Source of the DNA: Escherichia coli
GTDB taxonomy: Bacteria > Pseudomonadota > Gammaproteobacteria > Enterobacterales > Enterobacteriaceae
Length of the DNA stretch: 64,000 bases
Strand: one strand, 5' to 3'
NCBI RefSeq assembly: GCF_048403405.1
Contig: NZ_CP183129.1
Within the stretch, counting starts at the first letter, position 1. Every line of letters begins with the position of its first letter. The position numbers were made by a program, and so were the translations under genes. The notes under the pieces are model-generated. The model made no database searches, was not told the origin of the DNA, and saw only the letters and a program-made list of their open reading frames with translations. Shown here piece by piece: positions 4,331-59,612 of this stretch.

Positions 4331-5833
4331 TTATTCATCAATTCGCGGATGTTGCTGCACCAGGCGGGTACGTTTCGCCTGCAAATCGGCAATCTCGTGG
4401 TCAATATCATCGATTTTCTGCTCGATATTATCGTAATGCTCGACGAGAATTTCCTTCGCTTCCTGTATATCTGACGCCGCCGGTGTCGCACCTTTCAACG
4501 GACGATTTGCCGTCTCTTTCATGGTTACGCCGGTGATTAAACCAACCACCGCCACTACCATCAGGTAATAGGCAGGCATCATCAGATTCTGCGAGCTTTC
4601 GACCAGCCAGGCCGCCAGTGTTGGCGTCAGACCGGCAACCAGCACCGAAATATTAAATGCCGCCGCCAGCGCGCTGTATCGGATATGCGTCGGGAACATC
4701 GCTGGCAAGGTAGAAGCCATAACGCCCGTAAAGCAGTTAAGGATCACCGCCAGCATCAGTAACCCGGCAAAAATCAGGCCGATGACGTTACTGTTAATCA
4801 GAATAAACGCCGGGATCGCCAACACAAACAGTGCAACACTACCAAGTAGCACAAACGGACGACGGCCAAAACGGTCACTCAGCAAGCCCATCACCGGCTG
4901 GACAAACAGCATACCGATCATAATGGCGATAATAATCAGCACCCCGTGGTCTTCGGAGTAATGCAGGTTATGCGACAAATAACTCGGCATATAGGTCAGC
5001 AACATGTAGTAAGTCACGTTGGTGGCAATTACCAGACCAATACACGTCAACAGGCTGCGCCAGTGTTTGGTGGCAATCTCTTTAAACGAGACTTTCGGGC
5101 CATCCTGCAAACCTTCGCGGTCGCCCTGTTCCAGTTTATCAACATGCTGCTGGAACGCCGGAGTCTCTTCCAGCGCATGGCGCAGGTAAAGCCCGATAAT
5201 CCCTAACGGCAGAGCAATAAAGAACGGAATACGCCAGCCCCAGTCGAGGAAGTTCGCTTCGCCGACAATGGTCGAAATTAACACCACCACGCCCGCACCC
5301 AGCACAAACCCGGCAATAGAACCGAAGTCCAGCCAGCTGCCCATAAATCCACGTTTACGGTCAGGGGAGTATTCCGCAACAAATATCGACGCCCCGGTAT
5401 ATTCACCGCCGACCGAGAAACCTTGTGCCATCTTACAGATCAACAGCAGAATCGGTGCCCAAATACCAATCGTATCGTAGGACGGTATTAAGCCAATACA
5501 GAACGTACTGATCGACATAATCACAATAGTGATAGCGAGGATCTTCTGGCGACCATATTTATCGCCCAACATACCAAAGAAGAGTCCACCAAGCGGTCGA
5601 ATCAGAAAGGGAACGGAGAAAGTGGCAAGTGCAGCAACCATCTGCACGCTGGGGTCAGCCCCCGGGAAAAAAACTTTACCTAATGCGTAAGCAACAAAAC
5701 CATAAACACCAAAATCAAACCATTCCATTGCATTACCCAGTGATGCTGCGGTAATGGCTTTACGCAGTTTACCGTCATCAATAATGGTGACATCACGAAG
5801 GGTAATTGGTTTTACTTTTTTCCTTTTCAGCAT
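4331..5833 (-). CDS. proP: proline/glycine betaine:H+ symporter (MFS osmosensory transporter)
   Basis: ORF 4331-5866 trimmed to ATG 5833 (MLKRKKVKPITLRDV...), 500 aa; MFS fold with C-terminal coiled-coil extension. Confidence 0.9.
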   Translation of the reverse strand: MLKRKKVKPITLRDVTIIDDGKLRKAITAASLGNAMEWFDFGVYGFVAYALGKVFFPGADPSVQMVAALATFSVPFLIRPLGGLFFGMLGDKYGRQKILAITIVIMSISTFCIGLIPSYDTIGIWAPILLLICKMAQGFSVGGEYTGASIFVAEYSPDRKRGFMGSWLDFGSIAGFVLGAGVVVLISTIVGEANFLDWGWRIPFFIALPLGIIGLYLRHALEETPAFQQHVDKLEQGDREGLQDGPKVSFKEIATKHWRSLLTCIGLVIATNVTYYMLLTYMPSYLSHNLHYSEDHGVLIIIAIMIGMLFVQPVMGLLSDRFGRRPFVLLGSVALFVLAIPAFILINSNVIGLIFAGLLMLAVILNCFTGVMASTLPAMFPTHIRYSALAAAFNISVLVAGLTPTLAAWLVESSQNLMMPAYYLMVVAVVGLITGVTMKETANRPLKGATPAASDIQEAKEILVEHYDNIEQKIDDIDHEIADLQAKRTRLVQQHPRIDE

Positions 5834-6096
5834 AGCTTTCCTCGCAGAGTTGGCCCATTTCCGCAAACGCCAGAAAAATCAGCGCGACGGCCGCAAAAGG
5901 GGAGCGGGAATTGCAGGATGCAATCTCTGTAACAAGCGTAGCGGGTTTGCTTACACCCTCCGGTTAAGGAATGTACAATCAAACCAGTTGACGCCTGAAT
6001 TGGGCAGTTAATGACCTTTTTACCCTACCAGTGTTTAAATTTGTGATCAACTTCACACATGTATTTCGTTTAGGACTCATTGGTGTAACTGATTAT

Positions 6097-6975
6097 TTAC
6101 ACCAAATTTACAGAGAAGATTTCCTCGACCATTGCCCCCGCCAGACGCTGCGCTGAACAGAGTCGTGGCATCCCCAGCGCGACAGTTTGCCAGCGTTGGG
6201 TCACTGACCAGCAAACGGGTTGTTTATCTGCCGTGGTCCACTTTCCCAGCCAACTTAAAAAATCAGCATGATCCCCGCCCGTCGGAATGGTCGAAGAGGC
6301 AAACCACTGATGGTAATAGTGACGCGTGGTCGGTGCCGCATTGATACTCTCTGCCAGATGTTGTGTCGCTTTCTCGCGCAAATCACCCAGCAACAACGCC
6401 ACCGCTTGCGGGCTTCCCAGACGGCAGGCATCGCCAAATGCCCCCCAGCGCAACTCCTCCAGAACGATAAAACAGCGCCCAGGCAACGACCAGGCGTTAT
6501 ACGCCCCAGCACGCCAGCGGGTAAAAATTTGCTCGCTCTGTTCACCCGCCTGCACCAGTAGGCCTCGTTGCGTTAACGCCTTTTCCTTCCAGCGACAACG
6601 GGCTGAAAACCACTCATACAAGGCGGCAATTTGCTGGGGGAGCTCCGGGAAAGCAGAGTGCTGGCGGTGATCCATTTTTTGCAGCAGCGCCAGATGCTGC
6701 GCGATCTGCGTCAGCGCCAGATGACCGGGATCCAGCATCGACGCCAGTTTTTCCACCAATGTCAGACGCAGGCTAAGCGGCGCATTTAACATCCCGCCGT
6801 TCGTCCATGCCTGAAGCTGCACACGCGCAAGAAGTTCCTGCATCAGTCGTTCACGAAACTGCTGCTGATGGGTTTGTGGATGGCGGGCATCATCGCCCTG
6901 CGCCAGATCCACTAAAAAGCGCGGATGAACCGACTCCAGCACGCGACCGGGGCCGTCCAGTAACGTCTTGATCAA
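6097..6975 (-). CDS. yjcZ: uncharacterised protein, partner of the dynamin-like yjdA
   Basis: 292 aa ORF; start overlaps yjdA stop by 4 nt (translational coupling); matches K-12 YjcZ length and position. Confidence 0.8.
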   Translation of the reverse strand: MIKTLLDGPGRVLESVHPRFLVDLAQGDDARHPQTHQQQFRERLMQELLARVQLQAWTNGGMLNAPLSLRLTLVEKLASMLDPGHLALTQIAQHLALLQKMDHRQHSAFPELPQQIAALYEWFSARCRWKEKALTQRGLLVQAGEQSEQIFTRWRAGAYNAWSLPGRCFIVLEELRWGAFGDACRLGSPQAVALLLGDLREKATQHLAESINAAPTTRHYYHQWFASSTIPTGGDHADFLSWLGKWTTADKQPVCWSVTQRWQTVALGMPRLCSAQRLAGAMVEEIFSVNLV

Positions 6976-9200
6976 TATCGTTCTGCCGTGAAAAGTGTTT
7001 GAATATCATCGCGTAACAGCTGAGCGTCGGTGTAAATCCAGCTGTGAGTCATCACAGCCTGCTGCAATTGCTGCTGCATCAGCCTGACCACCGATTCATT
7101 TTGTTGACGCAGAGCCAGGCTTTCGCGTAAACGCGTCTGTAATTCCGTCAAACATGAAGCGAACTCAGCGAAAAAAGTATTCATGCCTGCCGTAACAGAT
7201 TCATCGACCTGCTCTGCCAGAACTTTAGCCATTTGTTGGCAATAAAGATCGACTTCTGCGCTTAATGCTCGTTGCAACACACTGTAATCAACCGTCTCTG
7301 TCGGGGATTTCTCATTTCCCCGTCCCCAGTCGGGCTGATTCAACCAGCGCGAAAAAGTCTCACGCACAACGCCTAAACGCGTGCTCTGCTCGTCCGTTGC
7401 TTCCTGGCGCGAAATGACTTCACTGAACAGCTGGCGAGTGTTGAAGTGGGGAACTGCGCCGTGAAAAACAGGAAAATGAAACCCAGGACGAAACCCTGAC
7501 TCGCTCAATTCCATTTTGACTTGTTGCTCAATGGGGCGAATAACATCGGTTAACACCCGGCAAAGGGTGGATTCCAGCTCGGCAAAACGCAGCGTAAAGT
7601 CGCGACTGATGGTGTTCTGCGCCGTCTGTAACAGTGTCTCACAGCGGGTACGAATCTCGCTTAACGGCTCCGAATCATCCTGAAACAAGGCGGCTAACTG
7701 CGCATTCACCGCATCTTGCTGTTGACGCAGAAAGTAGTTGGCGGAGGTCAGGGCCAGCTCGATTTCATGTTTAATTTCGCCGCTCACCTGCGCCTGATTG
7801 AGTTGCAATAGCTGCAAACTTTCTTCGATCTGATGGATATTTTGCCGCAATTGTTCACAAGCGACGTTTAACCCGTGCGCACGAAAATCCAGGTATTCCC
7901 GCGCCTGCTGCCCGTAATTCAACAGTTTATGCGCGGCAGATCGCAGAGCATACAACGAGGCGTTAGTGTAAGCGGCATGAAGCAACGCCTGAATTGGCTT
8001 GGCGAACAGCGAATCTTCCCACAACTGATCGGCAGCATGACGAATATGTTCGAGGTCCGCCAGATCGGCATGACGCCAGCGCCTGCCGAGCGCGGCATGG
8101 GCAAAATCTTCCACCCAGCGTTGTTGCTCTGGCGCGGGTAACTTACCGTTGTTGGCTAACTCATGGCGCGCCCGATTCGCCAGGTAGCCCCACATCGACG
8201 ACACTGGAAATATCTGCTGTGGCGTAATACAGCCTTTCATCAGCGTCCCGGAAATCAGTGCCCGCACCTGGTCGGCGTCGTCACTGTTACGATCCTGTTG
8301 ATCGAACTTATTGACCAGCACATACAGCGGCACCGATTGCCCCACCGCCAAAATCGCCTCACGGACCTCTTCATCGGAGATCGATTTCAGTTGCGTATAA
8401 TCCAGCACCGCCAGTACCGCCGAGGCGCGTGCCAGCTGCTGGTTAAGCATTTTTTGCAGATGCGGTTGCCCGGCTTCATTTGGCCCGGGGGTATCCAGTA
8501 ACGTCAACTGACCGGGATAACTCTCCAGCCCCGCCAGATGGACAAACTCCACTTCAATCACGGGAATATGCTCAATGGCGGCGTAAGCAGAAAAAGGAAA
8601 ATCGACGTCCAGCGCCTTCGCCAGTCGCACCAAATCATTCAAACTTTTCAGACAATGAAAAATAGGCTGGGCACCCAGATAATATTTTTCGAAAGCGACG
8701 CCATTTTCGATCCGCTGCATAAGCGCACGCATATCTTTATCTATTTCCAGCACATCGGTCAGATGCTTAATATCGCAATCACGCAGGCGCTGTTGTAATT
8801 TTTGAATTAAACAATCGATTGGCGCGACATGTGAAAAATGCAGTACCGGTTCCTTTTGCCCGGGCGTATGGCGAATAAGCGTCGGCAGCGCAGTCATTGG
8901 GCGATTACGATTAGGCAGAACCTCCGTACCAACAATGGCATTAATGGTGGTTGATTTCCCTGCTTTCATGGTACCGACAATCGCCAGCACCATTTCCAGT
9001 CGGGAAATTTTACGCAACTCATTATTCAGCATCGCGTGACGTTCGGCGATATTAGGCTGACTCCAGGGTAAAGCCAGTTGTGGCGCATCGTCTCCGGGGA
9101 CAGAGAGAGGCATTTTTTCCAGTAACTGCAACTGTTGGCGAGAAAGCTGTAACAGGCGTTCAGCCTCCTGACTTAACTCATACAGGGTCTGTGTGTACAT
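6972..9200 (-). CDS. yjdA: bacterial dynamin-like GTPase
   Basis: 742 aa; P-loop GTMKAGKSTTINAIVGTE and long coiled-coil regions; K-12 yjdA/crfC position. Confidence 0.85.
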   Translation of the reverse strand: MYTQTLYELSQEAERLLQLSRQQLQLLEKMPLSVPGDDAPQLALPWSQPNIAERHAMLNNELRKISRLEMVLAIVGTMKAGKSTTINAIVGTEVLPNRNRPMTALPTLIRHTPGQKEPVLHFSHVAPIDCLIQKLQQRLRDCDIKHLTDVLEIDKDMRALMQRIENGVAFEKYYLGAQPIFHCLKSLNDLVRLAKALDVDFPFSAYAAIEHIPVIEVEFVHLAGLESYPGQLTLLDTPGPNEAGQPHLQKMLNQQLARASAVLAVLDYTQLKSISDEEVREAILAVGQSVPLYVLVNKFDQQDRNSDDADQVRALISGTLMKGCITPQQIFPVSSMWGYLANRARHELANNGKLPAPEQQRWVEDFAHAALGRRWRHADLADLEHIRHAADQLWEDSLFAKPIQALLHAAYTNASLYALRSAAHKLLNYGQQAREYLDFRAHGLNVACEQLRQNIHQIEESLQLLQLNQAQVSGEIKHEIELALTSANYFLRQQQDAVNAQLAALFQDDSEPLSEIRTRCETLLQTAQNTISRDFTLRFAELESTLCRVLTDVIRPIEQQVKMELSESGFRPGFHFPVFHGAVPHFNTRQLFSEVISRQEATDEQSTRLGVVRETFSRWLNQPDWGRGNEKSPTETVDYSVLQRALSAEVDLYCQQMAKVLAEQVDESVTAGMNTFFAEFASCLTELQTRLRESLALRQQNESVVRLMQQQLQQAVMTHSWIYTDAQLLRDDIQTLFTAERY

Positions 9201-9601
9201 AGAAAATTCTTCCTTAAAGCAAATTTTGTTACTTTTATTTAGCCAGATTGTTTTTGAGTTCTGTTTTCGGCTTTTATAATTACTGCAAGAAATAATTTTA
9301 TATTTAGAGTGTTGTTTTTTATTAGAATAAATAACGTCTTCCGATACGTTTAAAACGTCAGAAAGATAAAAATATCATTTGAATTAAAAAAAGAACAAGT
9401 AGAGCATTAACCTTATCTTAAATAATAAATGGAGGCAAAAAGATTATTTTCTTTTTGCGTTTCCTTTCAAATGAAAACGATCGTCGTCTAAAATCAGCAG
9501 TACCCCCGACAAACTCAGGGATTTTGTGTATAATTGCGGCCTTTTTCGGCAATCTGCCGTTTTTTGGCGCTTTTGCCCTGCTGACTTTTGAGGAAATCCA
9601 C

Positions 9602-9937
9602 ATGTCATTACCACACTGCCCAAAATGCAACTCCGAATACACCTACGAAGATAACGGCATGTACATCTGCCCGGAATGTGCCTACGAATGGAACGACGCA
9701 GAACCTGCACAGGAAAGCGACGAGCTGATCGTTAAAGATGCTAACGGCAATCTGCTGGCTGACGGCGACAGCGTTACCATCATTAAAGATCTGAAGGTGA
9801 AAGGTAGCTCTTCGATGCTGAAAATTGGCACCAAAGTGAAAAACATCCGCCTGGTTGAAGGCGACCATAACATCGATTGCAAAATCGACGGTTTTGGTCC
9901 GATGAAACTGAAATCTGAGTTTGTGAAAAAGAACTGA
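9602..9937 (+). CDS. phnA: PhnA-family zinc-ribbon protein
   Basis: ORF 9455-9937 trimmed to ATG 9602 ([17 protein letters not shown]...), 111 aa; two CxxC pairs. Confidence 0.85.
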
Positions 9938-9955
9938 TTGTATTGTGATCGGTAA

Positions 9956-10031
9956 GCCGGATAAGGCGCTCGCGCCGCATCCGGCAACGATGCCGACTGC
10001 CTGATGCGACGCTGACCGCGTCTTATCAGGC
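9956..10031. repeat. REP (repetitive extragenic palindrome) pair
   Basis: gccggataaggcgctcgcgccgcatccggc and gcctgatgcgacgc...gcgtcttatcaggc read directly between phnA and phnB. Confidence 0.75.
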
Positions 10032-10096
10032 TTCCCTCTCATCTGTATAAATTTCGAACTACACTTAAGTGGCTTCTCTTAACTGAGGTCACCATC

Positions 10097-12627: not shown

Positions 12628-13407
12628 ATGCAAACCATCACCATCGCCCCACCCAAGCGCAGCTGGTTCTCGCTTCTGAGCTGGGCCATTGTACTCGCCG
12701 TGCTGGTCGTCTCGTGGCAGGGCGCGGAAATGGCCCCGCTCACGCTGATCAAAGACGGCGGCAACATGGCAACCTTCGCCGCCGACTTCTTCCCGCCCGA
12801 TTTCAGCCAGTGGCAGGATTACCTCACCGAAATGGCCGTCACGCTGCAAATCGCCGTCTGGGGCACCGCGCTGGCGGTGGTTCTCTCCATCCCCTTTGGC
12901 CTGATGAGCGCCGAAAACCTGGTGCCGTGGTGGGTTTACCAACCCGTTCGCCGCCTGATGGACGCCTGCCGCGCCATTAACGAGATGGTCTTCGCCATGC
13001 TGTTCGTGGTCGCCGTCGGTCTCGGTCCGTTCGCTGGCGTACTGGCGCTGTTTATCCACACCACCGGCGTGCTCTCCAAACTGCTTTCCGAAGCGGTAGA
13101 AGCAATTGAACCCGGCCCGGTGGAAGGTATTCGCGCCACCGGTGCCAACAAGCTGGAAGAGATTCTCTACGGCGTGCTGCCACAGGTGATGCCGCTGCTG
13201 ATCTCCTACTCCCTCTATCGCTTCGAATCCAACGTCCGCTCGGCGACCGTCGTCGGCATGGTCGGCGCGGGCGGGATCGGCGTCACCCTGTGGGAAGCGA
13301 TTCGCGGTTTCCAGTTCCAGCAAACCTGCGCCCTGATGGTGCTGATTATCGTCACGGTCAGCCTGCTGGATTTCCTCTCTCAACGGTTGCGTAAGCACTT
13401 TATCTGA
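12628..13407 (+). CDS. phnE: phosphonate ABC transporter permease, apparently intact
   Basis: Uninterrupted 259-codon ORF with GGAG Shine-Dalgarno 8 nt upstream; polytopic membrane protein. Confidence 0.85.
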
Positions 13408-21995: not shown

Positions 21996-22313
21996 TCAAT
22001 TTCTCCGCTGCTCTATTGCCGTAATCGCCTCCACGTGTTGTTGATGACGACCGCCTTCGTACTGCGCGCCCAGCCACGCATCCACAATCATTTTTGCCAG
22101 TTCGAGGCCAACCACTCGTGAACCAAAAGCCAGTGCAACTTCACTGGCATAATGCGGATAATCAGTGCGCTCTGACGACCTGGTGTCTTTATCAATCACC
22201 TCACTCATTGACCATGAATAAAAGGCTGGCACAGCAACGCAGAATCCTGCGGTGCCAGCGACATGACCGCCCATTGCTCCGGTACGTTTTTTAATAAAAA
22301 ACACCGGTTGCAT
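21996..22313 (-). pseudogene. rpiB: degraded ribose-5-phosphate isomerase B remnant
   Basis: Translation ends ...FGSRVVGLELAKMIVDAWLGAQYEGGRHQQHVEAITAIEQRRN, matching the RpiB C-terminus as I recall it, and contains SERTDYPHYAS; about 52 internal residues including the ICGTG active-site Cys region are missing and the N-terminal GCDHVG motif reads GGHVAG. Confidence 0.6.
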
Positions 22314-22565
22314 TGATTAATTGTGCTCAGTATTTGCCGAAGTACAATATATATAATAAATATATAAAACACCTCATATTATTTACAGAGATAATAAATT
22401 CGCGTAATTTTCCCTCTTCAGCACAAATGCCTAATAAAATGGCGCGTTCAGCTCACACTTCTACTTATTAAAGTCGCAATTTCCCAATTATGATAACGCC
22501 AGCTTTAAATGACGTATTTTGCATGGATTACATATTTACGACACAAATGATAAATGGAGATTTAT

Positions 22566-24551
22566 ATGAATAACTCTCGGTTATTCCGTTTGAGCAGGAT
22601 TGTTATTGCGTTAACTGCCGCCAGCGGCATGATGGTAAATACCGCTTACGCAACAGATGAAGCGAAAGCCGCCACTCAATATACCCAACAGATTAATCAG
22701 AATTACGCCAAATCATTACCGTTTAGCGATCGTCAGGATTTTGACGATGCCCAGCGTGGATTTATCGCCCCGCTGCTGGATGAAGGTATTCTGCGTGATG
22801 CTAACGGTAAAGTTTACTACCGCGCAGACGATTACAAATTTGATATTAATGCCGCTGCGCCGGAAACCGTAAACCCCAGCCTGTGGCGTCAGTCGCAAAT
22901 CAACGGTATTTCTGGCCTGTTCAAAGTCACCGATAAAATGTATCAGGTGCGCGGCCAGGATATCTCTAACATTACGTTCGTTGAGGGCGAGAAAGGCATT
23001 ATTGTTATCGACCCACTGGTGACGCCGCCTACCGCAAAAGCCGCACTTGATCTTTACTTCCAGCATCGTCCGCAAAAACCGATTGTTGCTGTGATTTACA
23101 CCCACAGCCACGCCGACCATTATGGCGGTGTGAAAGGCATTATCTCTGAAGCCGATGTTAAATCCGGCAAAGTTCAGGTGATTGCTCCAGCTGGCTTTAT
23201 GGACGAAGCCATCAGCGAAAACGTGCTGGCGGGTAACATCATGAGCCGCCGTGCGCTCTACTCTTACGGTCTGTTACTGCCGCACAACGCGCAAGGCAAC
23301 GTGGGCAACGGCCTTGGCGTGACGCTGGCAACGGGCGACCCGAGCATTATTGCACCGACTAAAACTATCGTCAGAACTGGCGAGAAGATGATTATCGACG
23401 GCCTGGAGTTTGACTTCCTGATGACCCCAGGTAGCGAAGCGCCAGCCGAAATGCACTTCTATATTCCGGCCCTGAAAGCCCTGTGTACCGCCGAGAACGC
23501 CACGCATACCCTGCACAACTTCTACACTCTGCGCGGCGCGAAAACCCGCGATACCAGCAAGTGGACCGAGTACCTGAACGAAACGCTGGATATGTGGGGT
23601 AACGACGCGGAAGTACTGTTTATGCCGCACACCTGGCCGGTCTGGGGCAATAAGCATATCAATGATTATATTGGTAAATATCGCGATACTATCAAGTACA
23701 TTCACGACCAGACCCTGCACCTGGCGAACCAGGGCTACACCATGAATGAAATCGGCGACATGATTAAGCTGCCGCCTGCGCTTGCCAATAATTGGGCCAG
23801 CCGCGGCTATTACGGTTCTGTCAGCCACAACGCCCGCGCGGTATATAACTTCTATCTTGGCTATTACGACGGTAACCCGGCTAACCTGCATCCCTATGGT
23901 CAGGTGGAGATGGGTAAACGTTACGTGCAGGCGCTGGGCGGTTCTGCCCGTGTCATCAACCTGGCGCAAGAAGCGAACAAGCAAGGTGATTACCGTTGGT
24001 CGGCAGAACTGCTGAAACAGGTGATTGCCGCCAACCCAGGTGACCAGGTCGCGAAGAATCTGCAAGCGAATAACTTTGAACAGCTGGGCTATCAGGCCGA
24101 GTCCGCCACCTGGCGCGGTTTCTACCTGACCGGCGCGAAAGAGCTGCGCGAAGGGGTACATAAGTTCAGCCACAGCTCCACCGGTTCCCCGGACACCCTT
24201 CGCGGGATGTCGGTCGAAATGCTATTCGACTTTATGGCCGTTCGCCTCGATAGCGCGAAAGCCGCAGGTAAGAATATCAGCCTGAACTTCAATATGAGCA
24301 ACGGCGATAACCTCAACCTGACGCTGAACGATAGCGTGCTTAACTACCGTAAAACGCTGCAACCTGAAGCCAACGCCTCTTTCTACATCAGCCGTGAAGA
24401 TCTTCACGCCGTGCTGACCGGACAAGCCAAAATGGCGGATCTGGTAAAAGCGAAGAAAGCCAAAATTATTGGCAATGGTGCGAAACTGGAAGAAATTATT
24501 GCCTGTCTGGATAATTTCGATTTGTGGGTGAATATCGTAACCCCAAATTAA
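22566..24551 (+). CDS. yjcS: alkyl/aryl-sulfatase-like metallo-beta-lactamase-fold protein, secreted
   Basis: ORF trimmed to ATG 22566 (GGAG 8 nt upstream), 661 aa; signal peptide; HxHxDH motif YTHSHADH. Confidence 0.85.
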
Positions 24552-58498: not shown

Positions 58499-59401
<903 letters not shown>

Positions 59402-59612
59402 TCAATGAAGGATACATTAATTTTACGTTTATTATGATGAATCCTCTGCAAATGAGCGAAATTTGATAGAACATTTATCTGCTGTACGATTTAATGAACT
59501 TAATGATACAGCATTACAAAAACAATCGAAGTTTATAAAGATGATTTCTGATTGACCAGAACCCTACCCTACAATGGTGACTAATTTTATTACTCTCGAA
59601 GGAGATGATGAT

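Follow-up and report, generated by a model that had tools for sequence, protein, structure and literature searches.

The question raised by a 64,000-nucleotide stretch of Escherichia coli DNA (contig NZ_CP183129.1 of assembly GCF_048403405.1; hereafter the window) is what is done by two overlapping minus-strand genes at positions 6097–9200, the first of which encodes a dynamin-like GTPase. An earlier note had read them as yjdA–yjcZ, a translationally coupled dynamin-like pair of incompletely understood role behind an AT-rich divergent control region, and had mentioned links of such pairs to membrane remodelling and stress protection. The locus is the rdcA (crfC, yjdA)–rdcB (yjcZ) operon of E. 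coli, which is already known and ordinary for the species. It very probably corresponds to the published switch in which RdcA and RdcB act on the diguanylate cyclase DgcE, with inputs from H-NS and sigma-28 and with an E. coli-specific clamp-binding add-on. Re-identifying a known operon adds nothing new; a link to a family of three-gene loci and a conserved promoter inside rdcA are modest side results.

The identity of both genes rests on profiles and names that agree. The large gene, rdcA (6972–9200, minus strand, 742 amino acids), has a product that scores 1587.6 bits against the NCBIfam CrfC equivalog (NF007368, cut-off 1146 bits) over residues 1–742 of 742 and matches Pfam Dynamin_N at residues 72–277 (3e-18). 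The small gene, rdcB (6097–6975, minus strand, 292 amino acids, TTG start), has a product that matches Pfam YjcZ (PF13990) over model positions 1–272 of 272 (8.2e-144), with no other Pfam match. RefSeq calls the large gene crfC or rdcA and the small one rdcB. The open reading frames lie where the earlier note had placed them, and its naming of the genes and its description of yjdA as a dynamin-like GTPase with a P-loop are both borne out. The rdcA stop and the rdcB start overlap by four nucleotides (TTGA, 6972–6975, minus strand), the TGA stop and the TTG start lying within this common TTGA in the junction CGATATTGATCAAG. The TTG start is identical in K-12, and the call of the annotated start is upheld because the N-terminus of RdcB is kept from residue 1 on across genera. 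Relatives of the locus were compared in a census of one genome per species, built with our own open reading frame calling and phmmer seeds; its 79 loci, from the best 80 of 131 hits, split cleanly into 49 two-gene loci and 30 three-gene loci, or triads, in which a patatin gene follows. The junction reads ATGA in 41 of the 49 two-gene orthologous loci, and the weak TTG start of E. coli would therefore be an Escherichia-derived state. With coverage of at least 80% as the threshold for presence, the 3.8-kb rdcA–rdcB region is found in 5399 of 5426 complete E. coli genomes; the pair is therefore core, as the earlier note had held in excluding a new insertion, and conserved synteny (below) agrees with this. 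The window is not from K-12, from which its RdcA and RdcB differ by 13 and 12 residues, respectively; compared with strain TUM14771, it has only 5 mismatches over 49,922 bases.

The role of the pair is established through work on K-12 as the activation of DgcE, the main cyclase of cyclic di-GMP (c-di-GMP) for the biofilm matrix. RdcA and RdcB are direct activators of this enzyme via its MASE1 domain (PMC6510439, Pfiffer et al. 2019). Whether rdcA, rdcB or dgcE is knocked out, CsgD, curli, cellulose and c-di-GMP are affected identically, and the effects do not add up when knockouts are combined. RdcA, reported to be soluble, self-associates and binds both RdcB and the MASE1 domain of DgcE, two-hybrid assays covering the RdcA–MASE1 and RdcA–RdcB contacts (PMC6510439). 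A genome-wide transposon screen of 2026 with c-di-GMP biosensors recovered dgcE, rdcA and rdcB as low-c-di-GMP mutants (PMC13031359). The GTPase-dead, GTP-locked T103D variant of RdcA is inactive and has lost DgcE binding while K82A is still functional, and because of this the authors propose an inhibitory effect of GTP, with its drop in stationary phase as the input (PMC6510439). The residues of the published genetics (K82, T103 and Q41LALP) are all intact in the window, where the P-loop G76TMKAGKS spans codons 76–83 including K82 (8952–8975, minus strand), the catalytic switch-1 threonine T103 is encoded at 8892–8894 (minus strand) and the beta-clamp-binding motif QLALP occupies codons 41–45 (9066–9080, minus strand). 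The remaining G motifs, D236TPG and N297KFD, are likewise intact, and none of the 25 substitutions that separate RdcA and RdcB from K-12 falls in a G motif or in the clamp motif. The target gene dgcE does not lie within the window.

Two regulatory inputs can be located around and inside rdcA. Upstream, the divergent control region between rdcA and yjdM (phnA; 9602–9937, plus strand, ATG at 9602) measures 401 bp (9201–9601) and is as AT-rich as the earlier note had described it: it has 31.7% GC where the window as a whole has 52.8%, and its core, at about 9201–9430, holds the lowest 200-bp GC value of the 64 kb (0.23 at 9273), segments of this length with GC of 0.27 or less making up only 0.3%. 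H-NS binds the crfC promoter region and represses crfC, and DnaA boxes are mentioned in the same promoter region (PMC6374313). A perfect DnaA box, TTATACACA, is found at 9525–9533 (minus strand), and a sigma-70-like sequence upstream of rdcA, TTGAAA-16-AATAAT at 9443–9470 (minus strand), matches the consensus at 10 of 12 positions. No canonical sigma-28 promoter occurs in 9150–9650 when up to six mismatches in total and up to two in the −10 element are allowed, in agreement with the statement in PMC4183435 that a FliA promoter predicted earlier upstream of yjdA was wrong. An Rfam scan of 5800–9700 at E values up to 1 returned no RNA family. Two hairpin-forming inverted repeats at 9435–9458 and 9547–9559 (plus strand), each followed by a T-rich run, are terminator-like matches to consensus, located beside yjdM where the spacer has a normal GC content.

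The sigma-28 (FliA) input lies inside the coding sequence. A FliA promoter that drives yjcZ has been mapped within yjdA by chromatin immunoprecipitation sequencing and RNA sequencing (PMC4183435), and its 28-nt site is matched exactly in the window at 7227–7200 (minus strand) as TAAAGTTC-N11-GTCGATGA, with the −10 element at 7207–7200 and a predicted start site at about 7192. In cells mutated in fliA, expression of yjcZ falls from 52 to 1 (PMC4183435), and the intragenic yjdA promoter gives FliA-dependent lacZ activity (bioRxiv preprint 10.1101/188474). The exact site in the window, together with the binding and expression reported in these two sources, places rdcB in the FliA regulon. The translationally coupled bicistron of the earlier note thus keeps its 4-nt overlap, and the simple picture of one coupled message is qualified by a promoter of rdcB's own.

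What is new here is the cross-genus conservation of the sigma-28 −35 and −10 elements inside rdcA. In 39 crown-group orthologues the pattern T-AAA-GCT-TT ... GTC-GAT stands at equal codons, with spacer codons that vary freely, and the promoter is kept across nine or more genera. Over the whole rdcA gene, compared among 10 representatives of eight non-Escherichia genera, the degenerate codons of invariant residues are also invariant as DNA in 27 of 415 cases (6.5%), and there are only two invariant runs of at least 8 nt, namely CGTAAAGCTTT (11 nt), which holds the −35 element, and CAGGTCGAT (9 nt), which holds the −10 element. The intragenic promoter is, on this codon evidence, under selection as DNA. 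It is missing in the basal lineages Cedecea, Mangrovibacter, Franconibacter and Siccibacter, partial in Buttiauxella, and missing in the triads. The 2017 preprint names the flhC-internal promoter as the only broadly conserved intragenic FliA case (bioRxiv 10.1101/188474), and the rdcA-internal promoter looks like a second.

The second protein of the operon is no dynamin, and the 'dynamin-like pair' of the earlier note does not hold in this respect. RdcB contains no GTPase domain, Pfam YjcZ being its only match, and its sequence profile finds no match in the PDB. An AlphaFold2 model computed from a 98-sequence alignment gives an all-helical protein with a predicted local distance difference test (pLDDT) score of 93 (24 close sequences gave 65.6), and its fold has no solved structural relative. 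Paired bacterial dynamin-like proteins of the DLP1/DLP2, LeoA/LeoBC or IniA/IniC type are encoded by two dynamin-like genes, an arrangement that is not found here. Throughout its family, a YjcZ protein follows a dynamin-like GTPase and, on mobile or non-Enterobacteriaceae loci, is itself followed by a patatin, which suggests that RdcB is an adaptor. YjcZ-family proteins would on this pattern be obligate partners of this dynamin subtype, apparently always encoded directly downstream of it, and RdcB may act as an adaptor or co-regulator. In c-di-GMP signalling, the family context suggests for it a place between the GTPase and a target. A metal or redox site composed of Cys168, Cys184 and Cys273 with His219 and His222, invariant in the core clade, was considered and discarded, as these residues are unconserved in distant family members.

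The published and the present data together give the following account of the operon. In K-12, the dynamin-like GTPase RdcA has been shown to be soluble, to oligomerise and to bind RdcB; when it is not locked in the GTP state, it docks on DgcE at the membrane MASE1 domain and activates the enzyme. The c-di-GMP made induces csgD, curli and cellulose through PdeR, DgcM and MlrA and brakes the flagella through YcgR. GTP is proposed to inhibit the switch, its drop as cells enter stationary phase then serving as the signal. The AT-rich, H-NS-bound upstream region silences or limits rdcA, and the sigma-28 promoter in the 3′ end of rdcA provides rdcB with its own transcript as part of the flagellar regulon. 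The N-terminal QLALP of E. coli RdcA binds the replication clamp, as in the CrfC role, and would be a lineage-specific add-on. The core pair itself would represent the branch of its family that is inherited vertically and lacks an effector, the other branch having a patatin phospholipase gene in third place.

Several points weigh against this account. The functional mechanism rests on K-12 papers, and GTP as a physiological signal, like the job of RdcB (GTPase-activating protein, exchange factor or adaptor), is a proposal in PMC6510439 too. No canonical sigma-28 site lies in the spacer, and the sigma-70-like site upstream of rdcA is only a consensus match; yjdA reads also fall, from 111 to 11, in the fliA mutant (PMC4183435), for which the internal promoter alone offers no obvious explanation. 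The CrfC literature, moreover, holds nucleoid partition to be the main role (PMC6374313). CrfC is the same protein as RdcA, with a clamp-binding motif, 41-QLALP, and a role in nucleoid partition (PMC6374313, Taniguchi 2019; Ozaki 2013 cited there). Its primary job could on these grounds belong to chromosome biology, with oligomers that bind beta-clamps on nascent DNA, hold sister forks and position nucleoids, and with c-di-GMP as a secondary matter. Anucleate cells appear in crfC deletion and Q41A mutants, Q41A is reported to abolish clamp binding, and the foci of CrfC at nucleoid poles depend on HU, SlmA and H-NS (PMC6374313); DnaA boxes in the promoter point the same way, and the window has both the perfect DnaA box and the QLALP motif of the CrfC type, with Q41, at residues 41–45. 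The distribution of the motif speaks for a narrower role. QLALP is present in 0 of the 18 non-E. coli orthologues aligned: PLTLP stands in its place in a cluster of non-coli Escherichia (88% identity), and the 17 orthologues from other genera have a variable linker that is eight residues longer and ends in a VLPLHF-like sequence. Yet those genera have kept both genes together with their synteny and the sigma-28 promoter. The motif looks specific to E. coli among the orthologues aligned, and so does the clamp-binding activity; other genera may have a divergent clamp-binding motif. The CrfC work assigns nothing to RdcB, 'yjcZ' occurring 0 times in PMC6374313, and PMC6510439 makes the case for replication as a moonlighting function. 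Chromosome biology as the primary job is therefore judged unlikely, and the clamp motif is better accommodated as an addition to the DgcE switch.

Less probable still is the reading towards which the earlier note leaned, that of a membrane-remodelling, stress-protection or anti-phage dynamin system comparable to the bacterial dynamin-like protein (BDLP) of Nostoc, DynA or LeoABC (Eleos). RdcA does have a dynamin-type G domain, weak PADLOC matches to LeoBC (8.5e-6) and LeoA (4e-5), and closest non-orthologous relatives that stand in patatin-phospholipase triads in island-like contexts. These matches, however, score just 23.2 and 20.9 bits and cover the models in part, RdcB has none in PADLOC, and the likeness of RdcA to solved dynamin-like proteins (Nostoc BDLP, Campylobacter DLP1/2) extends over about 50 residues of the P-loop and switch 1. 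By the PADLOC models, RdcA and RdcB do not qualify as Eleos (LeoA/LeoBC), and a PADLOC scan of RdcA, RdcB and the triad proteins returned no known or candidate defence system. Hydrophobic segments are absent from both RdcA and RdcB, the maximum Kyte–Doolittle mean over 19 residues being 1.21 in RdcA and 0.93 in RdcB; RdcA contains no membrane-binding paddle or transmembrane segment of the membrane-active BDLP type, consistent with its reported solubility. The second gene encodes no dynamin, neither an effector gene nor a patatin remnant is found downstream of rdcB, and the locus is vertically inherited and lies outside islands. The literature on CrfC/YjdA, to which the earlier note had pointed as a check, does supply published roles, in DgcE activation and in clamp binding, and leaves both the label of an incompletely understood role and the membrane, stress and phage framing out of date; in the core pair no feature supports that framing. 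The preferred account thus remains that of the RdcA/RdcB switch of DgcE.

The two-gene loci form a coherent group. Those with names all belong to the Enterobacteriaceae (Citrobacter, Enterobacter, Kosakonia, Lelliottia, Leclercia, Phytobacter, Huaxiibacter, Pseudescherichia, Franconibacter, Siccibacter, Mangrovibacter, Cedecea and Buttiauxella). A divergent yjdM is present in 48 of 49, the exception being a short contig, and the 400 bp upstream of rdcA are AT-rich in all 49 (GC 0.31–0.46 against 0.47–0.59 for the whole loci). On the other side, proP comes next after rdcB in the window, 230 bp away, and kdgT is an extra gene between the two in other genera. Escherichia RdcA lacks a variable segment of 32 residues in the helical half, with 742 amino acids against about 784 elsewhere. 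The tree of the two-gene loci roughly tracks the species tree, and the core pair is, by this phylogeny and synteny, vertically inherited, with an old locus architecture. No patatin remnant was found downstream of rdcB in the 49 two-gene loci or in the window, which contains no patatin match and no triad copy over its 64 kb; rdcA–rdcB does not count as a triad.

The relatives of the pair lead to the triads. An exhaustive profile search with RdcB yields 264 cluster representatives, most of them only 20–30% identical. Of four distant representatives looked up, three belong to loci that encode a dynamin (about 800 amino acids), a YjcZ-like protein (about 300–350) and a patatin (about 340–380), usually with 4-nt overlaps; the fourth is a DUF3944–YjcZ fusion that has a patatin after it and lacks a dynamin upstream. 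Pairs and triads separate cleanly in a neighbour-joining tree, each group filling a clade of its own; midpoint-rooted, it gives no direction of change between pair and triad. New here is accordingly a placement read from the tree and the synteny: the pair is a patatin-less, syntenic clade found only in the Enterobacteriaceae, and its sister group is the dynamin–YjcZ–patatin triad. Triad hosts include Escherichia albertii, Pantoea, Erwinia, Budvicia, eight Pseudomonas, purple sulfur bacteria, several Burkholderiales and Neisseriales relatives, and metagenome-assembled genomes (MAGs). The patatin motifs GGGxxG, GxSxG and DGG are kept in at least 90% of 33 sequences. Within E. coli an accessory triad (5620–9973 of locus L003) lies in CP4-type islands beside Ag43, a YeeP-type GTPase, KlcA, RadC and CbtA/CbeA, and it occurs in 2612 of 5426 complete genomes in one to five copies each, including O157, O26 and O145 strains. 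Further triads are found at loci L010–L034, L038, L041 and L043–L045, and triad relatives on 44 plasmids, of which 16 are predicted to be conjugative; no YjcZ relatives appear among IMG/VR viral contigs. The neighbours of 27 non-redundant triads comprise WYL/WCX regulators (six to seven proteins), JukA (four), integrases, transposases, PIN and DUF4143 proteins, a type I methylase and SNF2 helicases, and toxin–antitoxin genes are also among triad neighbours. No PADLOC model matches the triad YjcZ-like protein, and full-text searches of the literature turned up no functional study of the triad, one genomics paper of 2026 listing the genes in an island.

Homology, fixed gene order, an intact patatin active site and an island or plasmid context are direct observations on these loci; which way evolution went, how the module is regulated and whether the triad serves defence are what we infer beyond them. 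It is conceivable, and here offered only tentatively, that the core pair is a domesticated, effector-less branch of a widespread mobile module in which the GTP-state switch of dynamin and YjcZ controls a membrane-degrading patatin, the Enterobacteriaceae having rewired it to the MASE1 domain of DgcE under sigma-28 and H-NS. The module could be an abortive-infection or competition system that fires on a fall of GTP or on membrane perturbation. Present in about half of complete E. coli genomes, and often near WYL regulators and further genes of defence type, the triad is a candidate for a new membrane-targeting or defence system. The islands also bear on a published count of 122 'mutations' in crfC, 75 in a patatin gene and 10 in yeeP of E. 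coli ATCC25922 (PMC7696260): because triad islands are multi-copy, these look like read mis-mapping between paralogous copies and not like selection.

A few further features of the triad branch were noted. In the locus with the fusion (L007, 6001–7599), a 532-amino-acid protein joins DUF3944, a Ubiq_cyt_C_chap-like region and the YjcZ domain, and a patatin follows. Directly downstream of the patatin in three loci (L012, 8034–8837; L022, 7993–8727; L045, 8004–8825) lies a small family with no Pfam match that could be a fourth component. In one proteobacterial MAG (L033), paralogous membrane-anchored GGDEF diguanylate cyclases flank the triad on both sides (1632–2846 and 8255–9391), which ties the triad branch to enzymes of c-di-GMP in one anecdotal case.

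Elsewhere in the window, the spacer between yjdM and yjdN (9938–10096, 159 bp) contains one unit resembling a repetitive extragenic palindrome or bacterial interspersed mosaic element, where about six such units, each of about 100 bp, stand in tandem in K-12 (657 bp). The annotation of the matching strain gives phnE, at about 12628–13407, as an intact gene, whereas K-12 has the phnE1 pseudogene. The D-allose operon of K-12 (alsK, alsE, alsC, alsA, alsB, alsR) is absent at about 21996–22566, between yjcS and a 318-bp rpiB remnant. Other strongly AT-rich patches (200-bp GC down to about 0.26), at 45390–46520 and 59292–60300, coincide with espX5, a pentapeptide-repeat gene resembling effectors of type III secretion systems, and with a partial hypothetical gene near aphA.

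Among known systems, the nearest to the locus is RdcA/RdcB of K-12 (PMC6510439): the genes are the same, the proteins are 98% identical, the TTGA junction and the key residues are shared, and the spacers (400 and 401 bp) differ by seven substitutions and one 1-bp indel. With the CrfC of PMC6374313 the RdcA of the window has QLALP in common, a motif that the non-E. coli orthologues aligned do not share. The flhC-internal promoter of motA (10.1101/188474) is likewise a sigma-28 promoter located in the upstream gene, from which it drives the downstream mRNA, and conserved beyond the need of the protein; it is the single broadly conserved case of the preprint, whereas the rdcA-internal promoter is missing from basal enterobacterial lineages. 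The triads, labelled 'dynamin family protein', 'RdcB family protein' and 'patatin-like phospholipase' in RefSeq, have first and second genes that are full-length homologues of rdcA and rdcB, the E. coli accessory triad being 35% identical to RdcA over 697 amino acids and 31% identical to RdcB over 281; gene order is equal and the stop/start overlap is mostly 4 nt in both. They differ from the pair in their patatin gene, in their mobility (CP4-type islands, the 44 plasmids and several proteobacterial orders) and in having neither the yjdM synteny nor the AT-rich leader nor the sigma-28 promoter of the two-gene loci. With Nostoc BDLP (2j68), Campylobacter DLP1/2 (5owv) and LeoA/LeoBC, finally, RdcA has in common a dynamin-type G domain and a large helical C-terminal half; the similarity stops at the G domain, and RdcA has no paddle or hydrophobic segment. 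The output of RdcA lies in switching on a signalling enzyme and not in membrane fusion or fission (PMC6510439).

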